Made by a program: the position numbers and the translations under genes. From Saccostrea cucullata (Eukaryota), in assembly GCF_032062105.1 (NCBI RefSeq), contig NW_026927480.1, positions 1 through 64,000 of the forward strand: a stretch of 64,000 nt of DNA, in the 5' to 3' direction. Under the pieces are notes generated by a model that saw only the letters and a list, made by a program, of their open reading frames with translations, searched no databases and was not told the origin of the DNA. Positions 11,001 through 58,800 of the stretch are shown here, piece after piece. How positions within the stretch are numbered: the stretch's first letter is position 1; every line of letters starts with the position of its first letter.

Positions 11001-11353
11001 ATGGGGACGTTGGCATCGTTACGCAGGGTATACTTTTTTTAGGCTTTTGTCAATGTGTATTTTTTGAAGCAACAATTAACTGTTGATATTTTAAGTACCA
11101 TATATAGGCATACAAACAATGTATTGCTATTATAAAATAAATACAATGTATTGAAAATAAATTTTATTTAGGTTCACCGATTCCGGATTCGTCTACGACC
11201 CAAGTGCCGTTGACTACATTACCCCTTTCTATTTCCGATACACCTGCAGGAATTAATGTAGTCTGTCCTGGAATATTCGACTGCATGAAACAATGTATGA
11301 ATGGTTACCAAGTAGATGCACAGGGATGTCCACTTTGTCAATGTATTCAATAA
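8069..11353 (+). CDS. Secreted protein with 4 antistasin-like Cys modules, a Gly/Met/Pro-rich block and Thr-rich linkers, ~364 aa, 6 coding exons
   Basis: Exons 8069-8129, 8538-8672, 9965-10078, 10262-10582, 10746-11027, 11172-11353; all introns GT-AG phase 1; total 1095 nt, open frame to TAA. Leader MKAAFIFTIFLLFHSELNA. Modules e.g. CLANFFCTLDCRTGYQTDSTGCPLCSC and CPGIFDCMKQCMNGYQVDAQGCPLCQC. Confidence 0.85.
8925..9210 (+). mobile_element. SINE-like repeat with AAC/AAAT-rich tail; related fragments at ~24470-24730 (reverse) and ~28590-28710
   Basis: Shared 3' motif gtggcgtctccatatgagtgaaaaattc...taaacaacaaataaac recurs at ~28645-28705 as gtggtggcctctccagatgagtaaaaaaaattc...taaacaagccaac. 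Confidence 0.55.
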
Positions 11354-21567: not shown

Positions 21568-22211
21568 GTTTTTGAATTACTGTTTTAAGCTGTTCTCTAT
21601 CTCCATAGCAACGTATGGTTAATTATCATTTCCTTTATCATGAAGGCATAGCCTCATAATTGGTGGTAAAATTATCGTTAAAACATTGTGGTGAAAGTTG
21701 ATGAATGAAAGGAGGCATGGGAACAAATGGGTGTATTTTAAAAAGTGCTACATTTAATCAAGATTTTTTGTTTTTGTACATTTGTAAAAAATGATTGAAA
21801 TAATGCTTTTATCAAATTACTGTGATCACTAGCGGGGAAAGATGACAAGGCAAGTTAAACTCCTTGTGTAATTTAATGTTGTGTTAAATGTTTTATTTGA
21901 TTTAATAAAATATGGTTTAAAACTACAAATACAACATTGGATGTTACAATTTGTTTTTAAAAATTGAATAGGAATGCTTAAAGTCAGCAGGGAAAAATAT
22001 ATAGAAATAACACTAAATCTAATTAATAAGTATAAAAAGACCTTCATACTTCAAATGGTAATATTCTAATGTCTTTTAACAAAACATTAACAAGAGAACC
22101 ATAAAAAATTTTTAGAACAGTCAATGAAATTTGCCTTCTTCGGAGTACAAAAACTACTTTTGAAGTGAAGAAAAACACAACTTTATCCGCATCTTTCTAA
22201 AACGTTCGTCG

Positions 22212-28200: not shown

Positions 28201-29667
28201 TCAATGATGTAGCCAATCAAGGAATTCTAGGGTAAATTTCATCCAATTAGAAATTCATTCTTACCACAATTAAATCCAATCAGTAGCCTCGCTACAATGA
28301 TCATCTCATAGGAATGGGCCTCTCTGCTGAAGAAGAAAAGGCCTCCAGCGGCGAAAGCGAATGCGTTATTCAGTAACATTCCAAATTTCCTGAAATAAAT
28401 ACAAATTATCAATTTTCTAAGGTAAAAAAGATATTTATTTAGAAAATGTTCAATATTTACAACTCTCATTGATAGATTTTTTAAAAATTTGACATTAAAT
28501 TTTAAAAACGGGGGTTTTGAGGCTCGTTTTTGTGTTTGTTCAAATTCCCTTCAAGAAATTTTTCTCGTAATCAGAGATTATGGACTTGAGTTGGATGGCC
28601 CTAGGTGCCCGAGTATAGGTCTTAATTTGCAGTCCTACGCAGACAAGTGGTGGCCTCTCCAGATGAGTAAAAAAAATTCTCCAAGAGGCATTAAACAAGC
28701 CAACAAATTACGAACCTTCCAAAGAAGTCGGCCCACCATCCCGCCATCAGGCCGCCTAGCATCCCGCCCACAGCAAAGATTTTAGTGCTAAATGTATTTT
28801 CGGCGTGTTAAACGCTGGCTTATTCATAAACTCTTTGATTTTCTGTAGTTCATAAAAACACAGAACAATATATTTTTTTTACAACCAATAAGTAAATTAT
28901 AATAAAATTAAAAGATTTCTAATGAGGCAAACTAAAACACTTTTATTTAAAGGGAAATGCTACAAAATTATATGTATTCATTTAATCTTATTTGAAATAG
29001 AGTACTTAATCTATTTTGACATTCATTATGTCTTTACTTTATTTTGCTTTAATTGTAGACCGTTACATGTAATAATCGGCCCTGTTTTCCAATATTTCCT
29101 CGTTACCTTTTCAGGGGCGTTAATGACCCCCGTGTTGTATCCGAACTGAAGTCATGACTGTGTATATACGGAGAGATAGGCCGTGACACAAGAACGCAAA
29201 GAACATACTTTTTCTTAAATTTGGAAAACGCTTTTAAGTTGTAACAAGATACTTTTGAAAATCAAACTTGACTGAAAAAAATGTCACAAAAAATGCATCA
29301 CCGAGCAGAAGTCAGAAAACTTGCATTTGAGTTAGAAAGAACAATGCTTTCGTACGGTTGAAAACTGTAGAGATTTTGCCTTTAAACAGAAACAATCCAA
29401 GTTTGAAAGTAAATTTTACATGTATTTGTATACCTAAACGTTCCTACATTGTTCCTACATTGACTTTAAATGATTTTTTTAAAAAATTAGAAAAAAAAAC
29501 ATGAGAACCAAAAAAAAAAAAATGCAAACAAACAAAAAAAAAACAAAAACGAAAAGAAACAGCCCATTTGGGAAAATGTTATAAATGAAAGAAAAACTCA
29601 CTCCACGAATAGGTGGCGCCTCATCTGGAGACAAATGGTCACGTGATCCCTTTTGTGAGGCAGACAT
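22212..29667 (-). CDS. SLC2A1: Class I facilitative glucose transporter (GLUT/SLC2A1-4-like, MFS sugar porter); 3' exons intact, exons 2-3 disrupted
   Basis: Exons (5'->3'): 29602-29667, ~29107-29186 (damaged), 28716-28842 (frameshifted), 28265-28389, 25770-25940, 25551-25658, 25287-25375, 25090-25188, 24009-24221, 23474-23549, 22774-22901, 22212-22436. Family motifs: [71 protein letters not shown]. The symbol is a family-level label only. Confidence 0.85.
23098..23300. repeat. Diverged ~110-bp tandem duplication
   Basis: cccgtg(t/c)gtt(a/g)gtcaa(a/c)tgagctaatccctg begins at 23098 and again at 23208. Confidence 0.7.
23305..23470. mobile_element. Foldback/palindromic MITE-like element beside a GLUT donor site
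   Basis: Inverted arms acagtta..gagggaattagca..aggactatttccc / gggaaatagtcct..tgctaaatccctc..taactgt. Confidence 0.6.
26200..27790 (-). pseudogene. Degenerate intragenic duplicate of GLUT exons 2-4 and flanking introns
   Basis: LLIGFNCG|gtaaat at ~26248-26272 copies 28263-28285; KIKEF plus ~190 bp of intron at 27137-27340 copies 28826-29025; ggcgttaatga at ~27487 copies 29116; 27666-27770 copies 29217-29300. Confidence 0.75.
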
Positions 29668-35989: not shown

Positions 35990-36860
35990 TGTTTTAAAGC
36001 GTGGATATACAAGGCAATATTTTGTACATTTAAGATACATGTATATTTGACGAATCAGGGGAGATGTATGATATCGGCTATTTCTATTACAAATTGAAAG
36101 ATTACAAACAACAGTGTGATTGTTCTTATGCGAAGTACGTGAATGTGAAACCAAATGTACATTTTTTATTTAAAAATAATGTTGTAAAATCAATACAAGA
36201 GATCAGACGCAATTTTTATCACTCAATATTTACTGATGTGAAATTTCAAAAACCTTTGTTGGAAAAGAAATGGACAAACACATTTAATGTTCAGGGTGTT
36301 TGTTTATGGAAAAATATTTATAGAAACAAGATTTAAATGTATATGAGAAGAGAATATCAGAATTTAATTATAAACTATGACATGGTATTTTGAATAACAA
36401 TGTCTCTGTAAGCAAGTGGAACAAAGATATTTCTCCTTTATGTGAAAATTGTGAAATTGAAGATGATGTGAAACATTTATTGTTTGATTGTAAAATTCTT
36501 AAACCTATAAGGGAAAAAGTGAGCATTTTTCTAAAATATGATATTACTTGGAAATTAATTGTACTTGGATTTTACAGCGAACTAAGTGGAAAAACTTTGC
36601 TTTATAATAATTTGATAGCATTTATTAGCTTTACTACCGGGTATGTATGCATATAAGATGAAATGTAGACTACAAAATGAAATATTCTCAGAGAAAAATC
36701 TCCTACATAGACTGAAATCTATGCTTTATATTCAAAATGATGTCCTTGGGAAAATTGGTCATTAGAATATTTATCACAATTTAGTTGATTTTTTTATGTT
36801 AATGTTGATATTGTGATATGTTTGTGACCTGTTATGATTCTGATAAAAGATAAAAAAAAG
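35990..36860 (+). mobile_element. 5'-truncated, decayed non-LTR retrotransposon (L1/Tx1-type ORF2 C-terminus)
   Basis: Broken ORFs 36064-36336 and 36390-36656 carry W..WKNIY, FNYKL, and the CCHC zinc knuckle SPLCENCEIEDDVKHLLFDC typical of the region downstream of LINE reverse transcriptase; A-rich tail at ~36841-36859. Confidence 0.75.
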
Positions 36861-37880
36861 GATCTAGATGAGCGGATCAAAGGATTTCATTTTAATCAAA
36901 TTGGAATTGTTGGGAAATTGGGACAAAATCTAGAACTTGACAACTCCACTTGTGTCAACACTCGATTTATGAACTTAAGTGTGTATAGGTGTGTAACGGA
37001 CCTGACTCTGCATAGATTAACCGAAATCGATTATTTATGTCTATCAATAGAGATCACATGTTTCGAAGAAGCTACAAATTTATTTCTTTTTCCAATACTA
37101 AATATTAAAATGAGAAAAAAATGTACACAAATGTTAGTTGACACGTGGAATTCTTTCAATTTCAACATCCCTTAATTTGACTCTAAGTATTCCATTTACT
37201 TTCGTGCTGTATTTAGATGTTGTAAGGAATTTCAACATAAATTCATTCATCTAATTTTTTTTAATTCTTTTGGCAACCCTTCGATTCTGATCATTTCTAT
37301 AGATCCATTTCAAATACATCATTCATAGGAAATAAAAACTACAGAAGATGATTTACAATGTTTTATTATAAAAAGGAATGACATTCAACACATAAAAAAT
37401 ACTCTCTTATCAAACGAATGAAGACCGACACTGTTATAGTCCAGGCTAAACATTGACAGGGAAAAACTCGTATTAATTGATTTGGACATATTGCGTTTAT
37501 ATTTAGCTGACAATTATAATGCATGACAAACCGATACGGTTCGAATCGGAGTACAAAAAACATTGAAGTACTTTTACATAGTCTTACATATATATTCACT
37601 ATTCACCATTGATGCCATGTTTAAAATTATTCCAAGGGATAACATGGGTTATCTGCCCTTTTTGTCATTATTTTGACACGCCCCCTATCGCCTGATGATG
37701 TGTCTATTTGCAGCATGATGCGAGAACTGGATAGACAATGATATGTTAATTACGGTTCTACTTCATTCCTACAATAAAAATACAAAAAAGTAATGATAAA
37801 AATACTAACTTAATATCATTCCGACAATAAAAATACCAAAAAAGGTAATGTGAAAAATACAAACTTTATAAGCAACATTT

Positions 37881-40800
37881 TCACATGTAATCAAAAACTG
37901 CCGTTTTTTTACGTTTAGCAAATATCACTGAATGAATGGACTCTTCGACAGTTTTATTTTTTGGTCTTAAATCAAGCAAGAAATCATTAAAATTCCAGAC
38001 GTTAATGATTTTATCTTCAAGAACAATAATAATTATGTTATTACCTGGCAATGCTCTGTTGGATGCTCCTAGTGACCCCATGGAACCCATTAATGACACT
38101 GAAGAGAAAAAAGCATACATTAAGAATGAATTCCAAGTGAGACTCATTTCTGATCTGATTTTTTAAAAATGTTTTCTACTGACTGCTATTGTTTTACAAT
38201 ATTAGAGGAGGTAATCAAATTTAGAAAGAAATTTCAAAAGAATATTAAAAGTTGAATACATGCATGACGTCATTCTAAAATGGCTGACGTCAACTTACTT
38301 CTTGAAGCCATTTTCATCTGTGCTCCTAAGGTAAGAGAAAAAAAAAATAAATGAAATATTTGTACTCTTTAGATTTACTTCAGTACATTTTATAAAATAG
38401 AAATACATGTACTAAATAAATAAAATTTAAATAAACGATAACTTAAAAATTGAATATCAGAATCTGATAAGCGAACTTACTTCTTGCCTGCATGACATCA
38501 CCAAGGTTGTCAGCTAAAAAAAGGGAGGAGAGGCATGAAAAACATAGCCATCACATAGAGTGCTATTCAAAGTACATTGTTTACTAATAAACACAAAGAT
38601 AAATCATATCATTATGCAATATGATGATAATATTAAAAATGACATGTACAGGATATCTTTATTGAAGTTAAGATACCACAACCTACATTTCGCATTAGAT
38701 ATCATGGCCTATATTGAACATTAAAGTTCAATGAGCAATTTTTATTTATACAATATACAAACCAATTTGATCAGGTGTCATTCCAGCTGTAATGAAAAAG
38801 ATGAAATGTTTTAATTAATAAAATTTTGTCAAAAAAGAATTTAAGAAAAAAAAAACATTTTGTTGTTTACAACTTCATTGTGAGAAATTCATGTTTAAAT
38901 AGATATTAATTGGCTAATTTGCTTATCTCCAGTGTGGCAATATCAGATGTTTTGGAGGTATATTTCAAGTAACGTAAAATATGTTAAACTTCCGCGTTTC
39001 CACCATCCTCCATCACTAGCCTTTAAATTGATGGGATTAGGATCCTAAAACACAACCTACCTTGCCTCATCTGAATAGCCTTCACTGTAAACAAAAGAAA
39101 TAGAAAAATTATGAGAACTTTTGCCTAAATTTGAGAAAGAAAACCTCCACTTTAGATAAAATCGTAGAGAAGCTGACAAAAAACTCAATTTTGCGTATTT
39201 ATTGTTTTAGAAATTGATTTGAATATATTTGTTTGTTTAATTGCAAGATGTTCTTTGTTGGATGGAAATTATGTAAGTCAGAAATATTGAACTAGAAAAG
39301 ATAATGCAAGATAAACATGGACTTACTTTTGATGTCCATTGGCATGGAGGCTAAAATAAAAAATAAAACAGATATTAAAAACAAAACAGAGTAATACAGG
39401 AAAGTAAATAAATACGTTTAAACATTTTTTTATAATTTAAAATGGGAAAAAAAATCTTAAGTTATATTTTCTATTTGAACGTTCCCTTTCATTCCTTTAC
39501 TTACATGCCATGCGTGAAGTTCCTCCCATTATGTCAGCTGAAAGACATAAATTAATAAACAAATAAATAAACAAATATATAAATAAATTTTGATAAATCA
39601 TCAAAAAAGCCGTAATAGATTAGTTGAAAAGTTTCATTATTACTACAATTTGCAACCAATTTTGAATAGTGTATTAATATACTGCACTTGTATGTAACCC
39701 GTTCCTTTAAATTACATGGCTTGAAAACACAAGGTAGATCTGTCGTGAAAAGTAAGCTACATGTAGTTGAGAATGTTAATCTCTATTTAGAAGAATGTCT
39801 GTGTCTATTTAGAACATACATTACCTATTTGATCTGGTATAAGACCTGAAAAATAAATACAAATACACATTGTATTAAAAAGTCAGAAATGAAAAAAAGA
39901 AAGTAAACCTTTTCTTTAAAAAAATGTATTGCGTCTCACAAAATGACTGCATATATTTGAAAATCTTAATAATATAATTCTGAGGTGCACGTGGAAAAAT
40001 TCAAATTACAATATAGGACGAAAAAACCTTTTAAGATTAGCTGAATGCTTCAGATAGAAATCAAGAATTGAATTTAAAAAGATAAAACTTACCAATGCTG
40101 GCGAAAAGCATGTCTGTGTTAGCTCCGCTATTTAGCATCTGATTAAACGAATTTGCTCCACCGGAAGAAGCTGGAGCACCCATACTTCCGGTTCCGCCCA
40201 GCATGGATGCTTGACCTCCCATATTTCCGGTTCCGCCCATCATGGATGCTTGGCCTCCCATATTTCCGGTTCCGCCCATCATTGAGGTGTGATCAGAAAA
40301 TCCTGAAGTAGGAATTGGGTCTGTACCTTAGTAGGCATAAGATGAATTTAAGCCAAAAAGATCTTTGAAAACAAAACAAAATTTACAGAAATACAACAAC
40401 AGAAACGTAAATTAGAGAAAATAAGGTTGTTATACCTAGTCCCATTCCATTGATCCCACCCATTCCAAACATGTTGTTCATGCTGTCGGCACCAAAGCCC
40501 GCCTGAATCTGGGTAGGCATTGGATTCATCAAGAATCCCATGTGAGACAATTGTCCGGCAGCGTTATTTGGTGTTAGTCCAAAAAAGGAGTCTGTAGTAA
40601 AGAGGTTGAAACAAGGTTCAAGAAAAGACATTCCTCATGTAATCAAATACAGAGAGGACATTTAATTCATTGTCGCAAAAGCAATGTTTCAAGGTTTTAT
40701 CCGGAGTTGATTATATGTAGTTTTTATTGTTAAGTTCATACATGAAACTTGAAGACTGCAAGACTTTCAACCAATATTCTAAAGTTTGAATATAGCTTTG

Positions 40801-43800
40801 TGAAACATTTTAAGGCTAACAAGTGTGTAACTTTTCAAGCTGCATCAACAAGTAAATATCTAACAAAGTTCAAACCTGCTGTGGTGGCAATAGGTGGCGT
40901 GGTGGTGATCGTCGGTGGCGCTGTTGTTGTAACAGCCATGTTGTTGACGCCTGGCCATACGTTTAAGGTGTTCTGAACTGTGGCCTGGTTATTCCAAGGT
41001 GACGTCGCCGCGGCCTTGCTATTAACAGGGACAGGAGGGAGTACTTTTTCTAGCGCATTTGTAGCTGACTGTGCAGTTTTCTGCTGGAAGCTAACTTGAA
41101 GTGGCGAATTCATCACTGATTTCGAATTAGCTGGTTCTTGATATTGGATTTTTTCTATTGTAGATTTTGTTGGTAATCGTGAGGTTCTGAAGGGGTCTGG
41201 TGGGGGGATTGCTGTAATGAAAATTCCCATGATGCACAAGGAGTTTTTCAAGTAACAACTTAATGTAACAAGTAAGAGTACATGATTTTATTTGATTGAA
41301 TTTAGTTCGAAAGGGAAGATGAAATTTGAAATACATCTATCTCAACCAGGTTTTAATTAACAAAAACTTTTCTGAACATTTGCTGCTTTGATATTGTTCT
41401 AAAATATGTTTTTCAGCCATTATTCCCACCCTTCTGAGACGCCGTGTCCGTCACAGCTCCTCCTCGTCCTATCGCTACAGAACTTCCGGTAATATGGCTC
41501 TTAACAGGTGTGAAGGAAGCAGAAAACAAATCAACAGGAACCGGGTCCTTTCTTCCGCCTACGGTGAAGTCTGTATTCCGTCTCCGAGATCGTCCCGAAT
41601 CACTGGTTTGAGTATTTAGTGTGGACCTTTTAACCATGCCTCCCATTAAGGCAGCCATTGGATTCATGCCCATGGCACCCATACCTCCTGTAAAAGAGAT
41701 TACTGATAGTAAAAACAAGAACCGAGACAAGGAAGTTAACAGCGTTCTAGGTTCTGGGGTTTTTTGTTTGCTTTCAACATCATCAATGGAGTACTATTTA
41801 ATACTTTTTAAATGATTATATTGCCTTCTATGCATAATACAGCATTTTCTTATTCAAATTTGTGTTTCGCTCCAGTGTTTTGATAAAAGGTTTACAATGA
41901 ATTCAACAACTTTCGCTATATTTACTAGCTTTATCTACTTTCGAACAGCGTTTCAAAATACTTCAAATTCATGTAAAAGTTAATTTTGGGGGATGATTGG
42001 AAAAAGACTTATTAAAGCTATACTGATAAATTTCACAATTAAAATAAATGTAAAAATACAACTGCTCTTGTTGATATTTAAATACAATACAGTAGTTTTT
42101 AAAAAGATCTTTTGATAATGTTAAGAACATGCTTATGGTATTTTGAATATAGATAAATAACTTTTGAGCATAGAGAAGTATATATATGTAGAAGTGATTA
42201 ATTATTAGTATTGGTCATCTCTCGGGCCTACTTGTCTTTTGTTTTTCTCAGAACCACCTCTGCGATGTTCGACAAATAATGTAAATAAAACCACCGAGAA
42301 CCCGCTCAGCTTCATTGATAATCTCTGATGGAAGATAATATGTGTGCATTCGTGTTTGATATTAAGCAGAACTCAATTTAATATATGACGCACAATTTTT
42401 TTTTCAATAACGTTATATTTCTTCTTCATATTTTTTTCTCAATTTTGCATCCGAATTTGTGATGAAATGACCTTGGGGGAATCAAAGTATTAAGCTTCAG
42501 TATATTAAGACTAATCTAAGAACGACTCGTTCAAAGGTTTTGTTAGTAGATGGCGCTTATGCGGAAACGCCAAAAGAAAAAAAAATGATTCTAGGATCAG
42601 TTCAAAGTTCTTATTATATTAGAAAAGAAACAAATTCACTTCTCTTATCAGCCATAAATTAAACAATTAGATTTGCATGATCAATTTGTTCAATTTTCGG
42701 TTTATCAAATAGGACAAGACTATAAATCGTTTTATTGACAAAATGGAGATAAAATTAATTGAACCACTACAATTGACCGGATTTGCTATATTTTTTCATT
42801 GGACCTCACTAGATCTTAGGCTAAAAAGAAAGTAAATATATTAGATAATAAAAGATCACCAAAAAGTAACTGAAGGTGAACCGACAGACAAGACCTATTG
42901 TTTTTTTATTCAACTCAGGACATCAACATAGTTTGAATTTAAAAGAACCACTTAGACGGTTGCTACTTAATTTCTATATATAAATATGACCTTAAAGAAG
43001 TTCACGTTGGAGATGTTATTATAAAAGGCAAAGAAATACACAGGAAATTTGATCTAGCTAATTCCATGCAAATATTGCGCGTCTATAGTGACATCACATG
43101 GGCAAAAATCCCAGAGCAAGCTTACCTCGACCGCCCATCATTCCTTTAATACAAGAATATTCACTTCAATAATTTCTTTACAAACTATATTTTTTAATTA
43201 ACTTTTTTTTATTTTTTAAATAGTGAGTTTTCTAAAATAAAGATTTAAAAAAGGGAAGCAATTGCTACACTATAAGCAAGAGGGGAACTTAAAAACAAGA
43301 ACACGATGATGTATTTAAATGCTATACATGCACACATGATGCAAAATGCTGATGAAAAAATGTCTGATGAATGAGATACACATGTTCACAGAAAAAATTA
43401 AATAAATATTGATTTGTGGTTAATTTGTTAGTGTCACTACGTCTCTTACCTCCCCTTGAAGGCATATCTGTTTAACACAGATCAATAAAATAACATGGAA
43501 ATCACAAATATACATATACATAAAGAGAAAAATAATTACATGAAATTGCTCTCACTTTAAAATATTCAAGATTCCAGAGCTTAGATTTATGTTATATACA
43601 TTTTGTTGTATTCATTTGTATTTAAACAAACTAGTATTAACCAGTAACAGACTCAGTCTCTTACCTGGTAAATCTCCTCCTAAAGCTGAAAAAGAAAACC
43701 ATTATGATAAGCAAAGATAAATATTCAATCAATTAAAAAGAGTATAATTGCTTGCTGTTTTGGGTATGTAGAATAATACTTTTTTTTAAAAGAAAGATGA

Positions 43801-46800
43801 TATTAAAATGTCCTTTAATATTCAGTTTTTAAAAGCGATTTAATATTGATGAGAACAATTAATTTTCAAGAAATGTATGCTCCTCTGGAAATTATTCTAT
43901 ATATATTTATATATATAAGCTCACGTTATAATTATGTACATGTACTCTAAACTTAAAATAATAAATTATACTTATTTAAGATGATAATGAAAATTAAAAT
44001 AATGATTGCTCCCTACCTGCCAGAGCTCCGAGACCCCCCATTCCTCCTCCCATACCCATCATGCTGGCCAGGGCTGTAAAAGGAAGAGATGGATGTTGAT
44101 AATGAACATTATAATTTTATTTTTAAATAATTTCAACCTTAACATAAAAGTCATATTTAACAAAAAAAGGATAAAATTAAATAACTGAAGTAGAACTTGA
44201 TTGCAGCAATATCATTCACGTCATTACAGATTTATCTAAAAAATTCCAATCTACCAAAAATTTTTTTTTAGAAGGACACTGATTTATGACATTTATGTAA
44301 AAGTGTGCAAAATAATCGATAATGTGTGCGGAAGAAATGGGAATCCTACATTATCAATATCCTAAAATTAATGTTTTTACCTGGTGTTTAGGCTGACAAC
44401 TCTGTGTGTTTCTAAAATATAAATAATCCACCTACCTCCTAAATTTCCCATACCGCCACCACCCCCTCCTCCGGCCATCATGGCTGCTGCCAAGGGATCT
44501 AAACATAACATTATATTATCTTAGTAAGTGTTAATGTAAGACATAAATATTCTGTATTAATATACTTAACCTACAGGTAAAATCTGGATTTCAGGTATGT
44601 TTAATTGAAGAAGTTGAGGAATTTTGAAAAAAAAGGACTTCTTTATTTTTAAAATCTTAAAAACGAGCTAGTAAGAAAGAAAATTTTAGAGTTATTTTAT
44701 CATCAAACATTAACATTTACGAAATGTTTCTGTAGAGTTAAAAAGAACTTACTCATTCCCCCCATTAATCCGCCCATCATAGAATCCATGCCACCTTAAA
44801 AAAGTAAGAATGATAATTAACATCAAATACAATCATGGATATTTTTACTCTATTAAAAAGAATTACACCAAAACATCTCTCACTTAATTTTTTAATCCTT
44901 TGTATACATCATTGCATACAGACAGTATAAATAAATTTCGATACGCGTTTTCCTTAAGAGACAAAGTTAAGGAAGACAAACCTGATTCTTGTGGTGGAGC
45001 TGTCTCAGCATTTCCAGTTCCGGTACTACTGGACTTAGAAGATGAAGACTTGGAGGCTGTTGATTCAAGTGTTGTATATTGTACTTAAAAAGACATATTC
45101 AACATGTTCTAATCTACAAACCTACATATAAAGCTACAAAAAATGAACTTCATTAATTGAAAATTAAGGTATAACGCACCTCCTTTATTTGATTTTCCAG
45201 AGGAAGACGAGGATGACGTAGATGAAGCTTCACTTGTTGAGGCTGATGGTGGGTCAGGGCCAGGATTGCCTCCTCCTCCGCCGAGCATGCCCATTGCCTG
45301 TGCCATGGCAGCCATGTCCATTCCTCCACCACCTCCTAGAGCTGACATCATATCACCGCCCCCTCCGCCAAGTAGTGACGCAAGTCCTACATGGTACACA
45401 TTACATACTCATTAAAATTTATATACATGTACATGAATATAGAATTTTATGTGGTAAAAGTTATTATTTTATTTCATTAAAATTTAAAATGCACTTTTTT
45501 TCCGCCTATTATTTAGATTTTTTTTTTCAATGACAGTTTTCTTAAACTGATGATTTTAGAGAGATGTGATCAATGAAGTCATTGCATTGTTACGTACCAC
45601 CGCCCCCGCTTCCTCCCCCGAGTCCTCCAGACAGAAGACTGGCCAGTCCGCCACCACCAGATCCTCCCCCGGCACCTCCCATAGCTGTCAATCACAAGAA
45701 ATAATGCAACAACCATCAACATGTGAGTTTACACTTTTTTTTTACATGTACTCATTTCTCAAGTTATTACCACATTTTGGTCATATACACATGAGGTAAA
45801 CAAAGTAAATCAAAATTTCGAGCGGTTTGTACATGACAAGGCAATTCTATTATAGTACAACTTGTAAATTTGTAAATAGAGAATTGTATAAAGTCTAATA
45901 ATAAATTAATTTTCAAGTCAGTACACAATTTTTGTTAAGAATTGGAAACCATATTTAAAATACAACTATTAAATTTTTAATTGACATTCATCTTACCCAT
46001 CAGCATAAGTGGGTTCATTCCCATTCCTAAAAATAATAATCAAAAATAGGTCTTTGAATAAAATCTTTTGACAATATCCCGCATAATGCAATAAAACGCA
46101 TAATGTAATGGAAAATCAGAGGCTTTTTTTTTTAAAAAAGCACAAACCTGACTCTCCTGGTGTAGGCTGTTCAGGGACCTCCCCGGGATCAGTAGCGGTA
46201 TCTGAAGACAACATAATGGGTAATGTAATATTGAACGTAATAAATGTAATATTTAATGCAATAAATGTAATATTTTATGTAATTAATGTAATATTTTATG
46301 TAATAAATATAATATTTATGTAATATATTCAATTCAGCTTTACCATAGCAATTATCCACAAAGTCATCGTAAAAAAATATTTATAATAACACAAGTTAAA
46401 AATATTTAGGCAGGGTAATTAAAGTTTTTAGATTGAGAATGAAATTTGAAAGATGATGTATACTCACTGCCCATGCGCATATTTCTCATCATCATTCTGC
46501 GCATCATTGGGTCTGAATGAAAAAAAATGCATTTATTATGATTAGTACCCTACAATCGTTAAAAAATGCATTAATTTTGATATGATTATGCTAAATATGC
46601 ATTAACTAATAGAGAAATGAATTAATATATCTGTTACTTACTCATTCCAGCCATACCCATACCTAAAATTAAAACAAAATAATGATAAAATAAAATTTAT
46701 AAAATAATTAATTTTTCATATGTCAAAAAAAAACTATTGATTAATATAATTTTGAATAATTTGTAGTTGACCATTCATATTTGCATAGTTATAATAAATA

Positions 46801-49800
46801 GCTATCACCTTTGATTTATATCGAGTCAAAATAAAATCGACTTACTTCATGGGCCATTGAATCTACTTGCAGTGTCGACCTATTCATTGGGTCGTTGAAC
46901 TGACTTTCAGTGTTATAAATATAATCGACTTACCCATTAGGTCATTGAATCGACTTACAGAGTTATATATAGAATCGACTCACTCACTGTGTCATTGAAA
47001 CGACTTGTCGTGTTATAAATAGAATCGATTTAGTCATTGGGTCATTGAACTGACTTGTAGTGTTATAAATAGAATCGACTTATTCATGGGTCATTGAACT
47101 GACTGATAATTCTATAAATAGAATCGACTTACTCACTGGGTCATTGAATTGACTGGTAATTCTATCAATAGAATTGACTTACTCATTGGGTCATTGAATC
47201 GACTTGGCCTTCCACTGCTTCCGCTACTGCCAGACTCTCCTGAAAGGGTTTGAAACACATTCAATAAAACTTATTTCAGTATATTCCTGCAAGCCACGGT
47301 TTCAAAACTCATTTACAATATTTAAAGAAATGAATAGAAATTCTTAAAATAAAAAAAATATACCTCCTCCATTTCCGCCGCCCATGGATGCTACAAGGAA
47401 ACAAAAAAATATATATTTTTAACAAACAACAAATAATAAAAGGGGATAGAGAAATACCTGCATATTCGTTGTAATAAAATCATACTGATAAAAGGAAGAA
47501 TTACAATTACATTATGTCATTCAGTTTATCAAAAGGTGACTAAAAGCTTACATAAAAGGGTTAATGAAAGGAGACTGAAATATTACTGAAAGTGACTGTA
47601 AAACATTCATAACCGCCCCGACCCTTCACTGAATGCTCACTGAAAGGTCTAGAAAGTGTGACAGATATATTCCTTTTCCTCGTGTGAAAAAAACATCCTA
47701 CATGTCTTTTACGACTTCTCATACAAATTCTTTCTCTTTAAATGCAACTTATAAGGGTTACATACCCATTAACTGACTAAAGGCGTTTCCACCAGAACCC
47801 ATTCCTAAAACAAAAAGAAAAAGTTATATTTATAGAAAAAATAATGTTTAAAAAAATAAGTACAAATATCAATTTTAAATAAATGCTAAAGAAAATACTG
47901 ATACATAAATAATTGTAAGTCACAATGTAAAAATCTGCTGAAAATATACTGTTTAAAGTTCTTTAATATGATTTCAGCATCAATATATCTTGAAATTTTT
48001 TCTCCAAGATTAAATGAATACAACCAGAAATTGATATTACAAACAAGTCAATGCGGAGGATATAAAAATGCAAGATACTATCATAACTAAACTCTTAAAG
48101 CGATAAGCATGGGGCTTTTGATTCTTTTCAATTATAGCACACCTCTACCAATGATGTAATTTTTATGAAACCAAAAGCGCAATAAATGCTTACATTTTTG
48201 TGACTTAAAGAATTGTCTCTCTTTCCTTACTTTGGCGAATGGGCATTTTTTTAAAAAGAGAAATTAACAAGATAAAGATTATAAATCGAGAAGTTATCGC
48301 TCTTTTTCGAAAAAAAAAATTGCAATATTGCGCTTTTATTATATGTGTAAATGTATTTATATGACTTGATGAATTTTATGTACAAGGTTTATGAAATATA
48401 TGAATAGATACAAACCTTTCTTGAAATTAAATCTTGTGATTCTGTATCAATTATTTATACTTTATTAAATTTGAGTTTTGTATTGCTCTATATTAGTATT
48501 ATGAAATACGATTTTAATAATGCATAAATATAAGAGTATTCCTCAGCTGTTAAAGTATGCGCTGCTTGTGAAATCAATACTTACCATCCCCTAGGGATGC
48601 TGTGCAAGAATATATACTTTTTTCAATAGAACATAAACCTTGTTCCCAGATTAAAAACAAAAACTTCAAAGCGATAATTAAAAGACATAATAATATTGAC
48701 TTAATTAATTAACTAAAATAATAATCACCCTTAACAGAAAAAGCATTAGAAGACAAAATTACAATATAGAGGGCGGTAAAAATTATTGAATTATAGACAC
48801 TGTTAGGACGAACATGAACGACACACAGACGGTCTATTTACCCATCATCTGTTGGAGCTGATCCGGTGACGGGGAGTTCTTAGAGTCTAAAGAAAAATAC
48901 ATTTTTACATAAGTTGGGAGATAAATACTGTATATGTATCAGGGTGGTGCAATAAACCGATAAATATTCTGCATTCAATTGCAAGAGGTTGACTTCCTTT
49001 CCCCTATTGTACTTTATATCTCTTCAAAATGCACAAAGAGTACTTCCCTTTTAATAGATTACATGCTTTTTAAGTTCTGTCCATTGTTGTACTGTTTTGG
49101 TCAACATCATGCCTACCATTATGAAAACAATAAAAAAAAAAGTGATGTTACTCACTTAGACTTTGCATCATCTTCTGCGCAAGTGCAGTGAAGTCGGGCT
49201 GTGATTGGACAGTTGGTGCTGGGGTCGTTGTCGTAGTCGTGGTGGTAGTCGTGGTTGTGGTGGGGCGCCTCCTTGGTGGTGCCTGGAAAGCATTGGCTCC
49301 ACCACCTAAAGTCAACATAAGTTTATTCTTTCATACTCTGATAAACTTCAAGAACAACTGTAAAATGCTTTCTTCCAAAAACTTAGCATTATGAATAAAA
49401 ACATGCTACGTTTGAATAGATGTAAAAGCAGTTAATATTATTTGCAATCAGTTGAATTGGAATAAGTAAGGTTTTTACATATACATATTACATACCGTAT
49501 TACTTTTGACACCAGTTTTTAAGATAGTGATACAATTGAGGCCTACGATTCGACTTTTAAGGGTATTCCAGTTATGATTGTTTAGACATTCGACGAGAAG
49601 GGTTTAATAAAATATAGTTTTCCCCTCCTAGATATGATAGATATTTAAAAGCTTCCTCGTAATTTTTCTGGGAAAATTGTTATTTTTTGCCAAAAAAATT
49701 GGCACCAAACGTCAATTCACACGTACCTCCCAGAAGTCCCTGTAATTGGAGTTTTTGTTGTGGTGAAAGAACAGCTGAAATATAATTACATTCAAATATA

Positions 49801-52800
49801 AAAGTAATGCTTAAAATGCTATGTATCCATATAAATTATAAGTATTTTAAAAACTGAATTGTTTAAATTGAGGTATAATTTTCAAATATCATTTTGATAA
49901 TATTTGTAAATGTAATTAGTTTTCTAAAAAATGATATTTTAGGAGTAGTAAAAACCAACCCAAGAAAGCTCTCATAGCATTGTCTGGCATTCCACTTCCA
50001 CTAGATTGAGAGGTTTGTTTCGCTGAAGCTACCCCTGAAAAAAAATTATTATTGTCGGGATCGGGGTTAAAAGATATGTATCCTACAAAAAAGTGTTTTC
50101 TGTATTATTTTTCCTATTTATCATAGCACTTAGATTGTAATGCTCTTGTCTAAGACGACATTGCGATCTGCACAATTTAAAATAGATCCTGTTAAAATTT
50201 AATACACATACGCATGCGCGAACTAAGAGTGCAAAGCTAGACAGTTAATTTAGAGCAAATCTGTCTTAAAAGCTCTAGGATTTATTTTCTACAAATTAAA
50301 GGGAAATCTTTGAAAGCCATTAATTAAAAAGAACATATTGTTCTGCTTCAAACATTAAAATTTATTAGTGATTCTAACTGTTAATCCCAATACCTTCCAT
50401 GGGAAACACAAAAACCAAAAATAAATAAAAAATAACAAATAAATAAAATTCAAATCCTGAAAACATTGTTTTTAATTTTCAGCTTGATGGCTATTCCATA
50501 CTTCTGATTAATTTAAACTGAAAAGAAAATTAATTTTCAAAAATAAACATAATTAAAAAAAACCTTTATAAATATATTTTCACCATTTAGATAAATCTAA
50601 TTAAAACGAACCCCCCCCCCTTATTTAAAATTCGCGGAAAAATCACATAAAAAAATCCATACAATTAACTTGGATACTTTTCAGTTCAATCGATGGCTCC
50701 TATGGATATCGCTTATTGCAAATGACTTTTACGTATTTCATAATCAATAAGGATTTCCGATATCATATCTTCACTTTGTAGTTCAGTTCATAAATTTTGA
50801 TTGATATGAATTTAAGAAAAAATCATTAATTTTCACCGTGAAAGAATTTGTGCGTTGCTCACCGTAAGAATCAGATAACCCTTGACCTTGACCCAAGCCA
50901 GATAAAGTTGCATCACGGGCTATAAATAGAAACAAATGATTAATGATTAAACATTCACTACGACAAGGTTTAAAGTACATGTAATTAAACAGAATTTGCA
51001 ATATTTGAAGAGTTGTTTTTGGTTTTTATGGTTATCATTGTCTAGATAATGGATGTTATAGGCATTTCAGATTGTTGTTAACAGTTCTCCTTAGTTTGGA
51101 AGCTTACTTCTTGAAGAAGTCAAAGACAGACTTGGTGAAGACGACCTGGAAGGCGAAGCTGTAATGCAGAAAAAGGTAAGTTCATCAAGTAAATATATCA
51201 AGTTAATATATTTTAATTAAATAAATCAAAGCCTAACCTTTTTTCGTGGGAAAATAATTGATAATTAAAATTAACAATTACATTATATATATCTTCATTT
51301 AAAAACAACTTATTCACTTTCTCATTCTCTCAGGTGCTTACTTTCATTTTTCTAAGTATAAAGGCAGATTTTAATACTTCGTATTCTTTCTTAGCATTAA
51401 ATTTAGCAGTAGTCCCATCAGGGATCATGAATAAGTGATATTACTTGAGAAGATACAAGCAGTTGTCCTATCAGAGATAATGAATAAGTGATATTACTTG
51501 AGTATATACTTGGACTAGATAAATCGCTATATGCCATAGGAATTGGCTCTGGAAGGGCGCTTTGCGCAGTCGTTGAAGGAATTGACGTAACAGCAGTAGT
51601 AGATACCATAGTAGTAGTAGTAGGATTGGTAGTAGTAGTGTTAATGTCCAGATTTACAGTTGAATTCGCTATTATTATCTCATCTACCGATACATTTATG
51701 TTATTGGATAATTCTACAGGAGTAAATATTCAAAAACAGTTGATTAGTAATTAATCATACAACAAATAAAAACAAATATACATATATGTAAATATATATT
51801 AATACCGCAACCTGTACCAACTTATAATATTCATAAACCATAATTACAAATTAATGAAGTGTAAGTCACCATATCGACAATTAGGAGAATGTTAATCACT
51901 CACATGGTTATAAAGTCCCAAACAAAGACAAACTACAAGACACCCCAATAGAAGTTTTAAAAAATCAGTTAGTTTGCATTATGTATATTTACTTTAAAAA
52001 CAATTACCACAATCATGCATGCATAAGTAAAAGTAAACCCGTGACGTTGCCTAAAGACACTTCATTATTTGTTTAATTTTATTTTTAATGTTAAAAATAC
52101 AAGTCAGTCAAAATAACTGATGCATTAGACAATCTTGCCTTGTGTTTGTACATAGTTCATATCCTCGTTCTGTGAAAGATGGTGGAAATTTCTTTGGCTC
52201 TGTTCATTTCCCGACAAACTTGACATGAGATTTGTCCTGTGATTATCGTTCCTGGACATAGACAAACCTCCTTGAACATCAGTGTGAGGAATGGAATTGG
52301 ACAGCTGACCGGCCGTATGGACTCTAGAAGAATCCTCGGAAGTAGCTAGTCTGTGAGAAACATGTTCACTTAATTCTTGCTTACGCTTTCTCAAAGGTAC
52401 GCGTTGTCGGCGAGGTTTTCTGCTTTGTTCAAAAACAGCGCGGGCTTTATCTAGAGCGGAGATTGGGGAGGGCGTGGGTGGAGGTGGTGTTGTGGTAGTT
52501 GTCGTGGTTGTTGGTGGTGGTTTTGTTATTTCCGGATACAGAATTTCCGTGATTGGTTCTTGTGTTACATATTCATAAACGTAGGTTGTGTCAATAGACA
52601 GAGGGTCCATAGTGGTTTCTGGAACGGTTTCTGTAACTTTCTCAGTTTTTTGTTCTGTTACTGAAACTTGAGCCTGTTTTGATTCTGATTTGGATGTCGT
52701 TGAAACATCGATGATTTTGGTCGCTTCTTTAGCTGTATCTAATTGACGGAGTTCCTCCAATTCTTTCTGTCTTTTCATGTCCTTCTTAATTTGTTCAATT

Positions 52801-55800
52801 ACCCTTTCACTTGCAGTCGGTGTGACGGATCGAGACAGTGATATCTTTACTTCTTTGGATGGTATAAGGGTTTGTTCTTTCTTGTTAGTCTCCAAAGTCT
52901 TTGTTATTCCTGGCTTGAGCTCTATTTTAGTTGAGGTTACTGAAGACTTTTCTGTTAACGGTATTTTAGTCTTCTTTCCCCTTTGTCTTTCTGATAGTCG
53001 AAAATTACTTGTTTCTGAAAATATCTTTTTTTCATTCTGGTTTTTGGATTCTGGTACAGTACGTAATTTTGTTTTTACTGTGATATTCAATAATTTCATT
53101 GAGGGATCACCTTTTTTCTTTTTGTGTATTTTTGTAAGGGCTTTGACAATATTGTTTGCTGTTTTATTGTGTGTTTCTTTAAAATAACCTGTTAAAACGT
53201 CTAACATATTATTGATTTGCTCTACCATTCGGGTCTCGCCCACGGCTCGCTTTCGCCTCAGTGATACTTTGTTATTGACCCCAACGTTTGCGTTTAGATT
53301 TGTGTCCATTGGAACTTTGGAAGCGGCTTCCATAGCTTTTGCAGCAAGCAGTTCCGTGTTGAAAAGTACTGGATTGGATAACCCTACCCCTGTTCTCATT
53401 GGAGTACCTTGACTCACTGATTCACTTGATGTAGTTCTGGAACTGACACTTCCTCCTGTCTTTGTTGCAGATGATGCTGTCATACCAGTTCTTACATTAC
53501 CTCCCAAGCTTGTCGATTCACTTGATGTTCCGGTTGTTAGTAATCCACCAGTTGTTCCATCTGCAGTTATAGACGTTCCAGAGCTGATAGACCCACTAGG
53601 GCTTATAGACCCGCCAGTGCTGATAGAGCCACCAGTGCTTACAGATCCTCCAAGTCCTGCACCACTGCTTCTTGTCTCAGTTGATTTTGACGTTTTTTCA
53701 ACACGGGTCTCAGTTTTTACAACTTCTGTGCCTGGTCTCTCAATAAACTCGTTCGACCCTCTTGTGTTTGTGTCAACGTTACGTAAGTTGAAAGTCTCGG
53801 CACCTTGTCTGCTAGTTACGGTGTTTCCAGTGTTGGACATTACTTCTGTACCACCCACTTGCAACGATCCGGTTTGAACAGAGGAAGAAGATTCCGATGT
53901 CACGCCGGGTTCAATGAAAAACAACATAGCGTTATTTGGTCTGCTCATGCCTGGTGGTGTAAGGGACAGGGACGATCCTCCTGCAAGATCCCCACTTGCT
54001 ATATCCAGACTTCCAGACACACCAGATGGTCCGCTTATAACACGACCTGGCTGTCTTGGTTTAGCAACGTTAACTGTACCTGTCGATGAAGTAGACGACG
54101 ACGTTTTTGTTGAAGTAAAGGAAGTGTCAGATGATGTAACATCTGTAGAAGCCATCGTTCCATCTGCGAAGTTAGCATCGACGTACTCAATAACTTCTGT
54201 AACAACCGTTCCATCTTTCTGTACGGTTGTTTTAGTCTGTGGTGGCAATATTTTTTCTCCAGGTGCAGCGATAATTTCTTCGGTCACAGTTGTGATAATC
54301 TCCTCCACTTGTTGTTCTGGTTTAGAGGGCGCTATATTTCGTCCTGTGTCCAAAAGTATAAAATCAAAACCAGGATTTTGATTAGTTACTGAACTTGATG
54401 ATGAAGAAGAAGAAGTAGACGATGTCGAAATTGTACCAGTTGAAACTGCACTTTCACTATTTAACCCACTCGTGCCACTGTTTGCACCTGTAAGGTTATT
54501 TTCTGCAACAATACTTCCCGATCTAGAATCCCTTGTTACTCCGTTTGCATCTAATGTGAATGACGTTTCTACAGTGCGAAAATCGCTTGCTTTCTCTGAT
54601 GATCGGCTTTCATTTAGAGTCGTTGTAGTACCTTCTGTAACTACGATGGTTTCACTTGCTGGTTGTGTAACGTTCTTAATTACAACTGTTTCCTCAATGA
54701 TAATAGTTGAATCTCCAGCTGGATCCCGTATTGTTGTGTAATTTGTCCAAGAAGCGTTTTGCAATTGTGCTGATCCTGAAACGCCCGACACGGTATCAAC
54801 AGAAACATTATCTACACTTGTCCCACCTGTTGAAATAGTTGACGCTCCCGTCAAAGACGATGTATCGACAAATGATGACGAAGAGTCGGTAGAAGATATT
54901 CCAATCTCTGCAGTAGGGACCGGGTCAACGAGTGGAACAATTTCTGGTTGAATATCTACGGTTTCAGAGGTGACAACATTTGCTATGTTTGCCGAGTCTA
55001 CAATTGGAAGCGTCGGATCTACTACCACTGTTCCTGAGATTCCGGTTGTTGATAAAGATGTATCAAGAGATGACAATGAAGATGATGGGAGTCCTTGAAC
55101 TGATGTTGTTTCAGAAACAGCTGTAACATTGCTATCAGACATGCTGCTAGTTGTAAAAGAGGTGCCACCTATATTTCCTGTAATTCCACCTTCTACTGAT
55201 TCAACTGGAATTAGTCCACCCTGACCATCCGTGACAAAGGTTTCGGTAATTATTGTCTCTCTTATAATTGTTTTACCAGCGGGAATAGAATCTTGTGATG
55301 AGGTTGAAGAGTTCATAACCTCTCTTGTTACCGAAATTTCACCAGGAATAACTACTGTCTTTTTTGAAATCTCAGGTTTGTATGTTGTATCAGTTACAAT
55401 AGTCTCTGTCAGTGATGGACTTCGTATGTCCGTCTCCAATCTTGTTGTATTTGATGTTGTGACAATTGTCTCTGTTCTTCCGTCTTGTCTGCTGATATCT
55501 ACGTTTCTATTTACGTCGCCTGTTAGTGTGGCGGAGGATCCGCCAGCAGATTCAATGGTTAATGAAGTATCCTTTTCTTGAGTTCCAGATAAAGATGTAG
55601 AACCCGCACCTGTATTGAGGGAAACAGAGGTGGCAACATCTTTACTACCAGATAAGGTGCCTAAATCAGAAGCTATTGTTGCTGACTTATCAACTGTTCT
55701 ATCACCTTCAACAGACACTCTACTTCCATCAGACCCAATCATTAGACTGGAATCTACGACACTACCACTAGTAATTGTAGAATCTCGACTTCCTAAAACA

Positions 55801-58800
55801 GATACAGTTTCTCCAGATCTGGTGATATCAAGTGGTGGATCAGTCGTGACATTGCTTGTCCAAATGGAGACACTAGCATCCCTATCACGGCTTTTGCTGA
55901 CAACATTTCCACTTGTTTGCATGCCCTGATCTATGATTGTTACAGAGGCATCCCTATCTCGAATTGTACCGATATCGTTGCCCGAATCTATTGTGACTGT
56001 TGCACCTATGTCACGACTAGACCCAGCTGTATCAGTTACGGTAATTGTTGACCCTATATCCCCCCTTGTTTCAGTTTCAGATCCACCAGTTACAGTCACT
56101 GTTGATCCAATGTCTCTACTTGTTCCAGTGTCTTGTCCTGTCAGCGTAAAACCGGTGCCGCCATCATTAGTAATACCTGTTTTTTGGTCCGTATTTGTAG
56201 TAATAACCTCCTCTACTACAGTAATAGTTTGAACTCCTGTTCCTTCTATTCTTCCTTTGTCATTTGTTACAACACCTCCTGTATCGCTATAGTTTGACTG
56301 AACTTCGGTAACAGATCTTCCAGGCTTAACAATCAGAACATCAAACGGCAGTCCATCTGTAGTCACGGAAGTTTCATAAGGATCAACACTGCCTGTCTTG
56401 ATAGAAGATGTTGACGATGTTGATGACGAGGATGATGTAGAAGAAGTGACTGATGATCGTGCTCCTGGGCTACCTTGATCGATAACTGTCTCTGTGACCT
56501 TTTTAACGACTTCAGTTACTGGTCTTCTGTCTACAGTTTTTTCTACAACTGTGTCAACGACGACCGGATTATTATCTACCAAATTAGTTGTCACTGTCCT
56601 TCCAAAATTTGTTCCAATTGGTCGGTAATTAATATTTTCCGTTCTTCCTGTAACTCTTTCCATCGTTTCTTTAGGAATAATCATTGGTGGTGGATCGACA
56701 TTGATGGGGGAGACTGTATCTGTTACAGTTGTTACCGGTCTATAATCAATCATTATCGGTATCCCATCTGTAGATCCTGCAAACAGCGTGTTAGAATTAA
56801 CACCGCCACTTTCGTAATTGATTGAATCTTTCACATTCGATGTTGATCCGTCACTTTTGTAGTCTATGACTGTAATGTTTGTAACAGAAACAGTTTGTCC
56901 CCTGCTAGTTCCCCCAGAATCAGGCAGGAGGTACTTGTTTGACGTAGATGAAGTTTCTGTAGATGAACTTGTGTCAAAGATATTTCTTGTGTCTGTGGAA
57001 CCCGTACCTATCACACTGACTCTAGCATCATTTGTAGTATCAGCAAAACGTTGGGCATCTATATTCCTTCCACTAACAAATGTTGTATCAACTGTTCTAC
57101 CGGGTAGTGTGCTACCACCTAGGATTGTTTTACTAGTAGCGCCGCTTTCATGAACATCAGATATTAAAACAGAGTGGGGTTCGACGCCACCAGCAAATGT
57201 TTCCCTGATTATTGTTTCTCTTGTGATTAATTGTGGGCCCGAAGATCCTGTTCGCTCTGTAAATGTCACATCTCCAATCCTAGAAGAAGTTGTTTCTCTC
57301 ATAGTTTTACTCGTTTCAGAAGAGGTAACACCACGAACTTCAGTAACTGTACCAGCATCCGCCACTGAACCTGCATTTGTTGTAACTACCGTTTTAGATT
57401 CCGTCACACCGTCTGAAGGTACGAAAACAAAGTCAGTTGCGGTAGAACTACCGGCAGTTTCTCCGCGTGTACCACTCACAGTAACATCTGTAGATTTATC
57501 TGTTCGTGAGCTACTTATTGTATTTCCTGTTATAGTCGTTTCCGTGCGTGGACGCTCACCGGTTACAATTGTTTCAGTAATGGTTTCAGTTCGTGGACGT
57601 TGACCAGTTACAATTGTTTCAGTTATGGTTTCAGTTCGCACGTCTTTATCCCGGATGGCAGGACGAATTAATGCATTTGAATTTACAGTTTCCCTAACAG
57701 TAGTATCAGACCGTCCGGATATGGGGATTTCAATATTTGTTGTTCCTCTATTACCTGAAATATCAACTTTGGTCGTTCCAGTTTCGATATATTCATTTGT
57801 TCGCAAAGTAGATGAAGAACTCCCACTACCACTTGGTACAAACGTGTTTATGTTAACTACAGGATCTGTTTGAATCTCTTTAGTCGTTGTTACGGTTTCG
57901 GTAAACATTTGGCCTCTCCCATCTTGAACTTGGACCTCACTAATTATTAATCTTTCTGGGATATCAGGCCTTGCATTCCCATTCAATAAAATGTCAACAG
58001 ATGAACCCCCAGCATTGGTTGAAGAATGTGATTCACGAAGAATACTGTCTATTTGTCTATTTCCTGAAACCGTTGTTACGGTCGGAATTTCATTGGTGTT
58101 TATATTAATGTCCTTAGTTGTTGATATATCAACTGTTTTAGAAGATCTATCAACTGTTGTTGACCCAGAGGTATCAACACTGGTAAAGCCTACGTTGTCT
58201 GTGGTCAATGTCCCGGTGTTATCTACGAAACTACCCATGGTGTCCTTCGTTGTAACAAAGGTTCCCCCCGTTGTGTCGTCACCAGATATGATTTTTGTCT
58301 CGTTGATTATAGTGATTGTGGTTATTGTTTTAATGACATTACCATTTGGGTTTCTGTATGTTTTTGTAACTTTACTAACACCGCCAGGGGATGTTTCTGT
58401 AATTGTAGTGCTTAAACCGCCATCAATAGAAGTTGACATACCACTTCCAGTGTTTGTTTCCGTTCGTGTAGTTTCAATAAATCTATTTCCACCTGAGGTT
58501 GACATACCACTACCAGTGTTTGTGTCTGTTCGTATGGTTTCAATAAATCTATTTCCACCTGAGGTTGACATACCACTACCAGTGTTTGTTTCTGTACGTG
58601 TAGTTTCAATAAATCTATTTCCACCTGAGGTTGACATACCACTACCAGTGTTTGTGTCTGTTCGTATGGTTTCAATAAATCTATTTCCACCTGAGGTTGA
58701 CATTCCACTACCAGTGTTTGTGTCTGTTCGCGTGGTTTCAATAAATCTATTTCCACCTGAGGTTGACATTCCACTACCAGTGTTTGTTTCTGTACGTGTA

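Follow-up and report, generated by a model that had tools for sequence, protein, structure and literature searches.

A Gly/Met-rich microexon stretch in the oyster Saccostrea cucullata is likely the C-terminal end of a giant secreted precursor

Passages of PMC9999432 and PMC13052691 describe mature scallop abductin, which is located in the inner hinge ligament, as a protein of 116 amino acids (aa) with 58% Gly, 1% Pro, and GGFGGMGGGX repeats. For Pinctada fucata, passages of PMC7591529 describe the ligament methionine-rich protein (LMP), with ~300 aa of PDMMMK repeats and almost no Gly, and NU-5, with GPDMGG-type repeats, a Glu-rich block, and Cys. According to the same passages, insoluble scaffold proteins of all three shell structures (nacre, prism, and ligament) contain Met-rich regions, whose role in shell scaffolds has yet to be explained; acidic regions are noted for certain proteins of nacre and prism but for none of the ligament; and knockdown of NU-5 disturbs nacre. 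In the oyster Crassostrea nippona, entries in Table S10 of PMC10543319 place "mucin-2-like" signal-peptide proteins of 240 and 593 kDa (CNI_026219, CNI_026220) in the shell proteome. Here we describe a Gly/Met-rich, microexon-encoded stretch in Saccostrea cucullata, located within the first 64,000 nucleotides (nt) of contig NW_026927480.1 (assembly GCF_032062105.1), the whole of which we call the window. A preliminary description had placed this stretch at 38045-47804 and had proposed that it may belong to the precursor of an elastomeric or redox-sensitive (Met-sulfoxide) ligament or matrix protein.

Our analysis suggests that the Gly/Met stretch is likely the last ~700 residues (the last 15%) of one giant secreted oyster precursor and not a gene of its own; this likely larger precursor had been overlooked in the preliminary description. 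The full model comprises 46 exons and 4,553 aa (479 kDa; isoelectric point, pI, 8.4), and all of its 45 introns are phase 1. Exons 1-3, 7.8 kb past the window, encode a signal peptide with a mean hydropathy of 2.5, and because no other 19-residue segment of the model exceeds a hydropathy of 1.21, the protein appears to have no membrane anchor. The model holds two Cys, both inside the signal peptide. A signal peptide in the upstream exons had been named as a test of the secreted reading, and, conditional on the one-gene model, exons 1-3 provide it. Exon 9 encodes a Thr/Ser/Gly-rich region of ~2,570 residues, with 17.8% Thr and 14.1% Ser (32% together) and 3.6% Pro over 2,205 aa. Among 7,988 candidates scored, two relatives of this exon (P0001 and P0002) were found, with 41-42% identity by whole-length BLAST, 59% identity over aligned columns, and long exact blocks. 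A furin-type site at aa 3255 is kept in both relatives, and another at aa 4175 is kept in Magallana gigas. The Pfam scan, covering seven exons of the gene and four relatives, yielded nothing above the cut-off, with weak CID and HTH_23 rows below it. The exons, all on the minus strand (-), are listed below, with residue identities given relative to M. gigas (model P0035 for exons 34 and 35).

Exons 1-3, contig 71815-71785, 71631-71614, and 67211-67143, beyond the window (-): ATG and signal peptide
Exon 4, 1752 nt, contig 65133-63382 (in the window 63382-64000) (-): basic Ser/Lys-rich region
Exon 5, 90 nt, 63018-63107 (-): placed by splice sites and open frame only
Exon 6, 939 nt, 61982-62920 (-): basic low-complexity region
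Exon 7, 174 nt, 61567-61740 (-)
Exon 8, 87 nt, 61271-61357 (-)
Exon 9, 7722 nt, 52139-59860 (-): Thr/Ser/Gly-rich, mucin-like; RRKR at aa 3255; putative GC donor at 52139; relatives P0001 and P0002
Exon 10, 216 nt, 51498-51713 (-): Thr-rich
Exon 11, 51 nt, 51108-51158 (-): Ser-rich
Exon 12, 57 nt, 50863-50919 (-)
Exon 13, 75 nt, 49960-50034 (-)
Exon 14, 48 nt, 49727-49774 (-)
Exon 15, 150 nt, 49156-49305 (-): poly-Thr
Exon 16, 45 nt, 48842-48886 (-)
Exon 17, 15 nt, 48585-48599 (-): microexon
Exon 18, 39 nt, 47766-47804 (-): Gly/Met block 1 begins
Exon 19, 27 nt, 47364-47390 (-)
Exon 20, 57 nt, 47183-47239 (-)
Exon 21, 21 nt, 46642-46662 (-)
Exon 22, 45 nt, 46468-46512 (-): Met/Arg-rich; MNP[ML] motif 1 across the exon 21/22 junction
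Exon 23, 54 nt, 46148-46201 (-): Pro/Thr/Glu spacer
Exon 24, 30 nt, 45997-46026 (-): MNP[ML] motif 2
Exon 25, 87 nt, 45598-45684 (-): Gly-rich
Exon 26, 207 nt, 45180-45386 (-): Gly/Met, then Ser-rich
Exon 27, 102 nt, 44982-45083 (-): Ser/Thr spacer
Exon 28, 42 nt, 44753-44794 (-): Gly/Met
Exon 29, 63 nt, 44436-44498 (-): MNP[ML] motif 3 across the exon 28/29 junction
Exon 30, 57 nt, 44017-44073 (-): Gly/Met
Exon 31, 21 nt, 43665-43685 (-)
Exon 32, 18 nt, 43450-43467 (-)
Exon 33, 18 nt, 43126-43143 (-)
Exon 34, 258 nt, 41430-41687 (-): MNP[ML] motif 4, KR pair, furin-type RSRRR (R-x-R-R at aa 4175); identity 67/86
Exon 35, 336 nt, 40876-41211 (-): Pro/Thr-rich linker; identity 58/112
Exon 36, 156 nt, 40436-40591 (-): Gly/Met block 2 begins, MNP[ML] motif 5; identity 40/52
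Exon 37, 234 nt, 40093-40326 (-): 39-nt repeat; conserved tail begins at its end; identity 35/78
Exon 38, 21 nt, 39825-39845 (-): microexon, first PDQIAD-type repeat; identity 7/7
Exon 39, 33 nt, 39505-39537 (-): identity 9/11
Exon 40, 24 nt, 39327-39350 (-): identity 6/8
Exon 41, 24 nt, 39061-39084 (-): identity 7/8
Exon 42, 24 nt, 38763-38786 (-): second PDQIAD-type repeat, located via the M. gigas model; identity 7/8
Exon 43, 33 nt, 38481-38513 (-): predicted helix; identity 11/11
Exon 44, 27 nt, 38299-38325 (-): predicted helix; identity 9/9
Exon 45, 54 nt, 38045-38098 (-): identity 12/18
Exon 46, coding part, 37758-37768 (-): stop TAG, AATAAA downstream at 37367; C-terminus as in M. gigas, identity 3/3

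Several candidate features were rejected while this model was assembled: a donor of exon 9 at 52385, because conservation extends beyond it; a Cys-rich reading of exon 8, which lies in the wrong frame; and a last exon at 37726-37704 ending in two Cys, as the M. gigas C-terminus matches 37768-37758. Within exon 9, a 22-residue unit occurs nine times at 58432-59029 (-), with copies 95% alike, and its absence from both relatives points to a recent expansion.

The interval 38045-47804 contains 28 exons of 18-336 nt on the minus strand, 16 of them no longer than 51 nt and 10 no longer than 27 nt, and all 28 are AG/GT-bordered and in phase 1, with a guanine-cytosine (GC) content of 51% in exons versus 27% in introns. 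From exon 18 to the stop, the 707 encoded aa comprise 19.7% Gly, 11.7% Ser, 11.3% Met, and 2.5% Lys, with two Tyr and no Cys. Gly/Met block 1, the richest in Gly, contains 29.3% Gly, 14.8% Met, and 5.7% Pro, and block 2 contains 17.8% Gly and 14.6% Met. The spliced minus-strand translation and the exon counts thus bear out the earlier account of a microexon-encoded, Gly/Met-rich, Cys-free domain, and all the peptides quoted in that account were recovered; its limits leave out the true last exon (37768-37758). A 13-residue repeat reported there as threefold is present in exon 37, with only two exact copies and a degenerate third (a 39-nt repeat of 2.7 copies, 95%). In a splice-site scan, open, frame-keeping acceptor-donor pairs made up 34 of 82 on the minus strand versus 2 of 29 on the plus strand, a comparison that is partly circular because the weight matrices were trained on this model's own sites. 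The Gly-richest exons, 18-33, were modelled from splice sites, phase, and composition, and the support from M. gigas covers exons 34-46. Intron 20 carries a 50-nt tandem repeat of 6.6 copies (46837-47205) that duplicates the end of exon 20 and its donor site; the units are too short to be spliced singly, yet they illustrate how microexons might originate by junction duplication.

A profile built from exon 35 and its relatives retrieved an uncharacterised M. gigas cluster of three models, including XP_034322280.1 (LOC117688359), with UniRef entries A0A8W8NVK5, A0A8W8P4W4, and A0A8W8P7H9. These models (P0034, P0035, and P0036) share the last 13 exons of the S. cucullata model, joining them from 41687 through to the stop. 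Judging from these shared exons, the common C-terminus, and the common furin-type site, LOC117688359 is likely the orthologue; its public models are fragments of 274-570 aa lacking a signal peptide (274 aa in RefSeq), compared with 4,553 aa in the S. cucullata model. The stretch is a genuine feature, and it is conserved between oyster species. In the seven C-terminal microexons (38-44), 56 of 62 residues are identical to M. gigas, versus 93 of 190 in exons 35 and 37, and by this per-exon identity the microexon-built tail is the most constrained part. The frames of genomic relatives match exon 35 solely between its exon borders. The M. gigas models look faulty in two respects: 47 additional residues separate exon 34 from exon 35, and the N-terminus is unrelated. 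A 24-residue block at the border of exons 36 and 37 distinguishes P0034 from P0035; together with a second in-phase acceptor in the window at 40302, it hints at alternative splicing there. Searches of the S. cucullata genome itself showed a single copy, a count that is a lower bound, and a second haplotype was not found.

Whether exon 9 and the Gly/Met exons belong to one transcript is a question of gene structure, kept separate from the likelihoods assigned to roles below. We consider it probable that all 46 exons belong to one transcript, with exon 9 spliced onward from a putative GC donor at 52139. Throughout 52000-59860, the sequence AG/GC[AG]AG occurs at a single site, in phase 1 and 12 nt 5' of the stop, and GC content falls from 40% before this donor to 29% after it. 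The frames of the two exon 9 relatives end 3 and 6 residues past the same GK, as expected from read-through of a phase-1 donor. Several observations pull the other way. The exon 9 frame is conserved almost to the stop at 52127, and an AATAAA lies at 52083, a combination that fits a last exon and that would place the Gly/Met exons in a gene of their own. All three M. gigas models begin mid-gene without a signal peptide, and none extends 5' to exon 33, so they lend no support to the exon 9 join. A two-gene arrangement would have exon 9 as the terminal exon of one transcript and the Gly/Met exons as a separate protein of ~920 aa or smaller with its own promoter, possibly non-secreted; beyond the points just given, the RefSeq model of just 274 aa and the small secreted genes in tandem elsewhere in the window speak for it. 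We regard it as rather unlikely, since the consensus donor sits just ahead of the stop with both relatives ending right after the same GK, AATAAA is frequent at 27% GC, and the M. gigas models look faulty. The 425-nt gap between exons 9 and 10 yielded no convincing exon with a start and a signal peptide: a separate start exon at ~52065-51900 was rejected, and the best ATG candidates meet a stop or lie in the wrong phase. No loci spanning this gap were found in metagenome scans. The putative GC-AG intron at 52139 (-) closes a 7.7-kb exon and could account for gene predictors splitting the gene.

Abductin, LMP, and NU-5 were set against the oyster model by motif, not by alignment. Like abductin, the model is Gly- and Met-rich and predicted to be secreted; however, neither GGFGGMGGG nor FGGM occurs in its 4,553 aa, its richest block holds 29.3% Gly and 5.7% Pro against 58% and 1%, and its smallest predicted furin product is 375 aa against 116, with exons 34-46 alone encoding ~410 aa. 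It shares with LMP a Met-rich composition and a signal-peptide-like N-terminus but contains no PDMMM. Closer in overall design are the Met-rich insoluble shell proteins of P. fucata (NU-5, P,NU-5, and others), which are large and domain-poor, with a Gly/Met- or Met-rich block amid Ser-rich low complexity, although GPDMGG is absent from the oyster model, as is Cys outside the signal peptide. The Met-rich low-complexity feature of this class is present in both blocks, at 14.8% and 14.6% Met, and a clear signal peptide lies in exons 1-3, whose link to the Gly/Met exons is inferred. As Met-rich regions are common to nacre, prism, and ligament proteins, the Gly/Met composition does not single out the ligament. 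The C. nippona "mucin-2-like" proteins, as their table entries give them, share an oyster origin, a signal peptide, a size of 240-593 kDa, and the lack of a Swiss-Prot match, and differ in pI (9.8-10.1 versus 8.4); those entries provide a precedent for the class only, and the id numbering of C. nippona shell genes yielded no placement of the oyster gene. The long Thr/Ser-rich region (2,205 aa) also recalls gel-forming mucins. The vWD and cystine-knot domains of gel-forming mucins serve disulfide polymerisation, whereas the oyster model has no such Cys-rich domain, its two Cys lying in the signal peptide and no such Pfam match appearing in the exons scanned. The best placement for the protein is among the giant, domainless, Met-rich secreted matrix proteins of bivalves, as an uncharacterised member from oysters; it is neither abductin nor LMP.

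The motif MNP[ML] is present five times, whereas 20,000 shuffles gave a mean of 0.05 and never more than 2, and each occurrence is followed by Met/Leu/Ala-rich residues set between Gly/Ser runs. A single-sequence fold model of the 274-aa M. gigas fragment predicted helices in the tail, with a predicted local distance difference test score (pLDDT) of 70-82 at residues 211-250 and disorder elsewhere, and microexons 38-44 fall in this sole region. Foldseek with this low-confidence model gave no match at E<=0.001 among the best 30 matches listed, and a sequence search of the PDB returned 0 matches. These features suggest a scheme in which the precursor would act as a self-associating scaffold in the organic matrix of the shell. 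A furin-type convertase would cut at the two conserved sites, releasing a mucin-like piece of ~340 kDa, a piece of 920 aa (96 kDa) with Gly/Met block 1, and a piece of 375 aa (39 kDa) with block 2. The Gly/Ser runs of both blocks may serve as flexible spacers, and the short, predicted Met-rich helices, namely the five MNP[ML] segments and the conserved 100-residue tail, may serve as hydrophobic stickers through which the pieces would condense to an insoluble matrix, with no cross-linking by disulfide or tyrosine.

We consider it probable that the product is a secreted matrix or coating protein. That it is specifically a shell-matrix scaffold is more tentative, a class-likeness reading to which we give a little less than an even chance. 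Against the latter, the shell role is drawn from class likeness, the fold model of the M. gigas fragment has low confidence overall (mean pLDDT 46), and both Gly/Met blocks have little net charge (-2 and -1), whereas acidic regions are a feature of certain nacre and prism proteins. Six marker peptides or ids were also absent from the supplements of PMC10543319, PMC5854119, and PMC5379566, a weak negative because these supplements hold mostly ids and annotations.

A mucus or surface-gel protein of gill, palp, mantle, or larval secretion, in which an O-glycosylated Thr/Ser brush is joined to a Met-rich tail that condenses the gel or, by forming methionine sulfoxide, absorbs oxidants, is a possible but distinctly less favoured role. 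The 32% Ser+Thr over 2,200 residues, the lack of a Pfam folded domain in the exons scanned, and the neighbouring secreted antistasin-type and leucine-rich-repeat genes would suit it; the want of Cys beyond the signal peptide, and hence of the disulfide-polymerising domains of gel-forming mucins, does not, and the ~40-60% identity of the giant exon between oysters, with long exact blocks, is probably more than a simple glycosylation brush needs. The hinge-ligament precursor of the preliminary description, in which furin-released Gly/Met pieces would form a rubbery resilium, appears doubtful. Its broader claim stands, in that this is an oyster gene with a plausible secreted matrix role, while the specific likeness to a hinge-ligament elastomer is not supported, with no abductin or LMP repeats (GGFGGMGGG, FGGM, or PDMMM) found. 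Block 1, at 14.8% Met and 29% Gly, is compatible with a ligament role, and both blocks lack an acidic region, as passages of PMC7591529 describe for ligament proteins; Lys and Met would also permit sulfilimine links such as those proposed for abductin in passages of PMC9999432. On the other hand, Gly is half and Pro ~6 times the abductin values, the last 707 aa offer few cross-link sites, with two Tyr, no Cys, and 2.5% Lys, and the conserved part is predicted to be helical, whereas the same passages describe abductin as a random coil. Most speculative, and very unlikely in our estimation, is an oyster-specific polyprotein from which furin would release two parts, a mucin-like brush and a Gly/Met module that is free of Cys, has almost no Tyr, and would set either through condensation of its methionine helices or through Met-Lys links. 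The 21 symmetrical microexons of this polyprotein would let splicing add or drop single stickers and so tune stiffness, and it would be the main protein of the oyster hinge resilium.

Other genes surround the precursor. On the plus strand, a six-exon secreted gene (8069-11353), whose first exon encodes a signal peptide, combines antistasin-type Cys modules with a Thr-rich spacer and a Gly/Met/Phe-rich block of its own; this block contains two MNPM, a motif in common with the Gly/Met protein. At ~13200-16910 and 20480-21570 (+), further exons show an antistasin-like arrangement of Cys along with Thr-rich spacers; they are probably parts of one or two more secreted genes in tandem. A leucine-rich-repeat protein is encoded by one long exon at 1775-3121 (+; Pfam LRR_8, E 1e-33) with a hydrophobic signal-like stretch ahead of it, and an Arg/Ser/Asn-rich frame of ~260 aa past an acceptor site at 5470-6263 (+), with no Pfam match, is likely a small secreted low-complexity protein. 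Exons at ~22200-28550 (-) presumably encode an SLC2A/GLUT-type sugar transporter, and broken frames with a CxxC-like stretch at 36034-36760 (+) are what we take to be the end of a decayed retrotransposon. Upstream of the precursor, a 667-codon Gln/Pro/Asn/Met-rich frame at contig 101465-103465 (+) probably represents an exon from a different secreted protein of low complexity. Among further searches for relatives of the precursor, one restricted to homologues of 623-2000 aa found none, Atlas searches with exon 37 and the tail gave no usable match, and a plant repeat protein (P0005, E 1e-6) was rejected as a chance match. Within the literature searched, no paper was found for LOC117688359, four accessions, or two peptides.

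Bivalve shells are already known to contain giant secreted proteins of low complexity as well as Met-rich regions. Because the public models found for this gene are fragmentary, most of the protein could escape proteome searches run against them; with the corrected model, the gene can be tested for in digests of shell, ligament, and mucus. The conserved, microexon-built, predicted-helical tail of 100 residues offers a small construct for probing the role of a Met-rich region.

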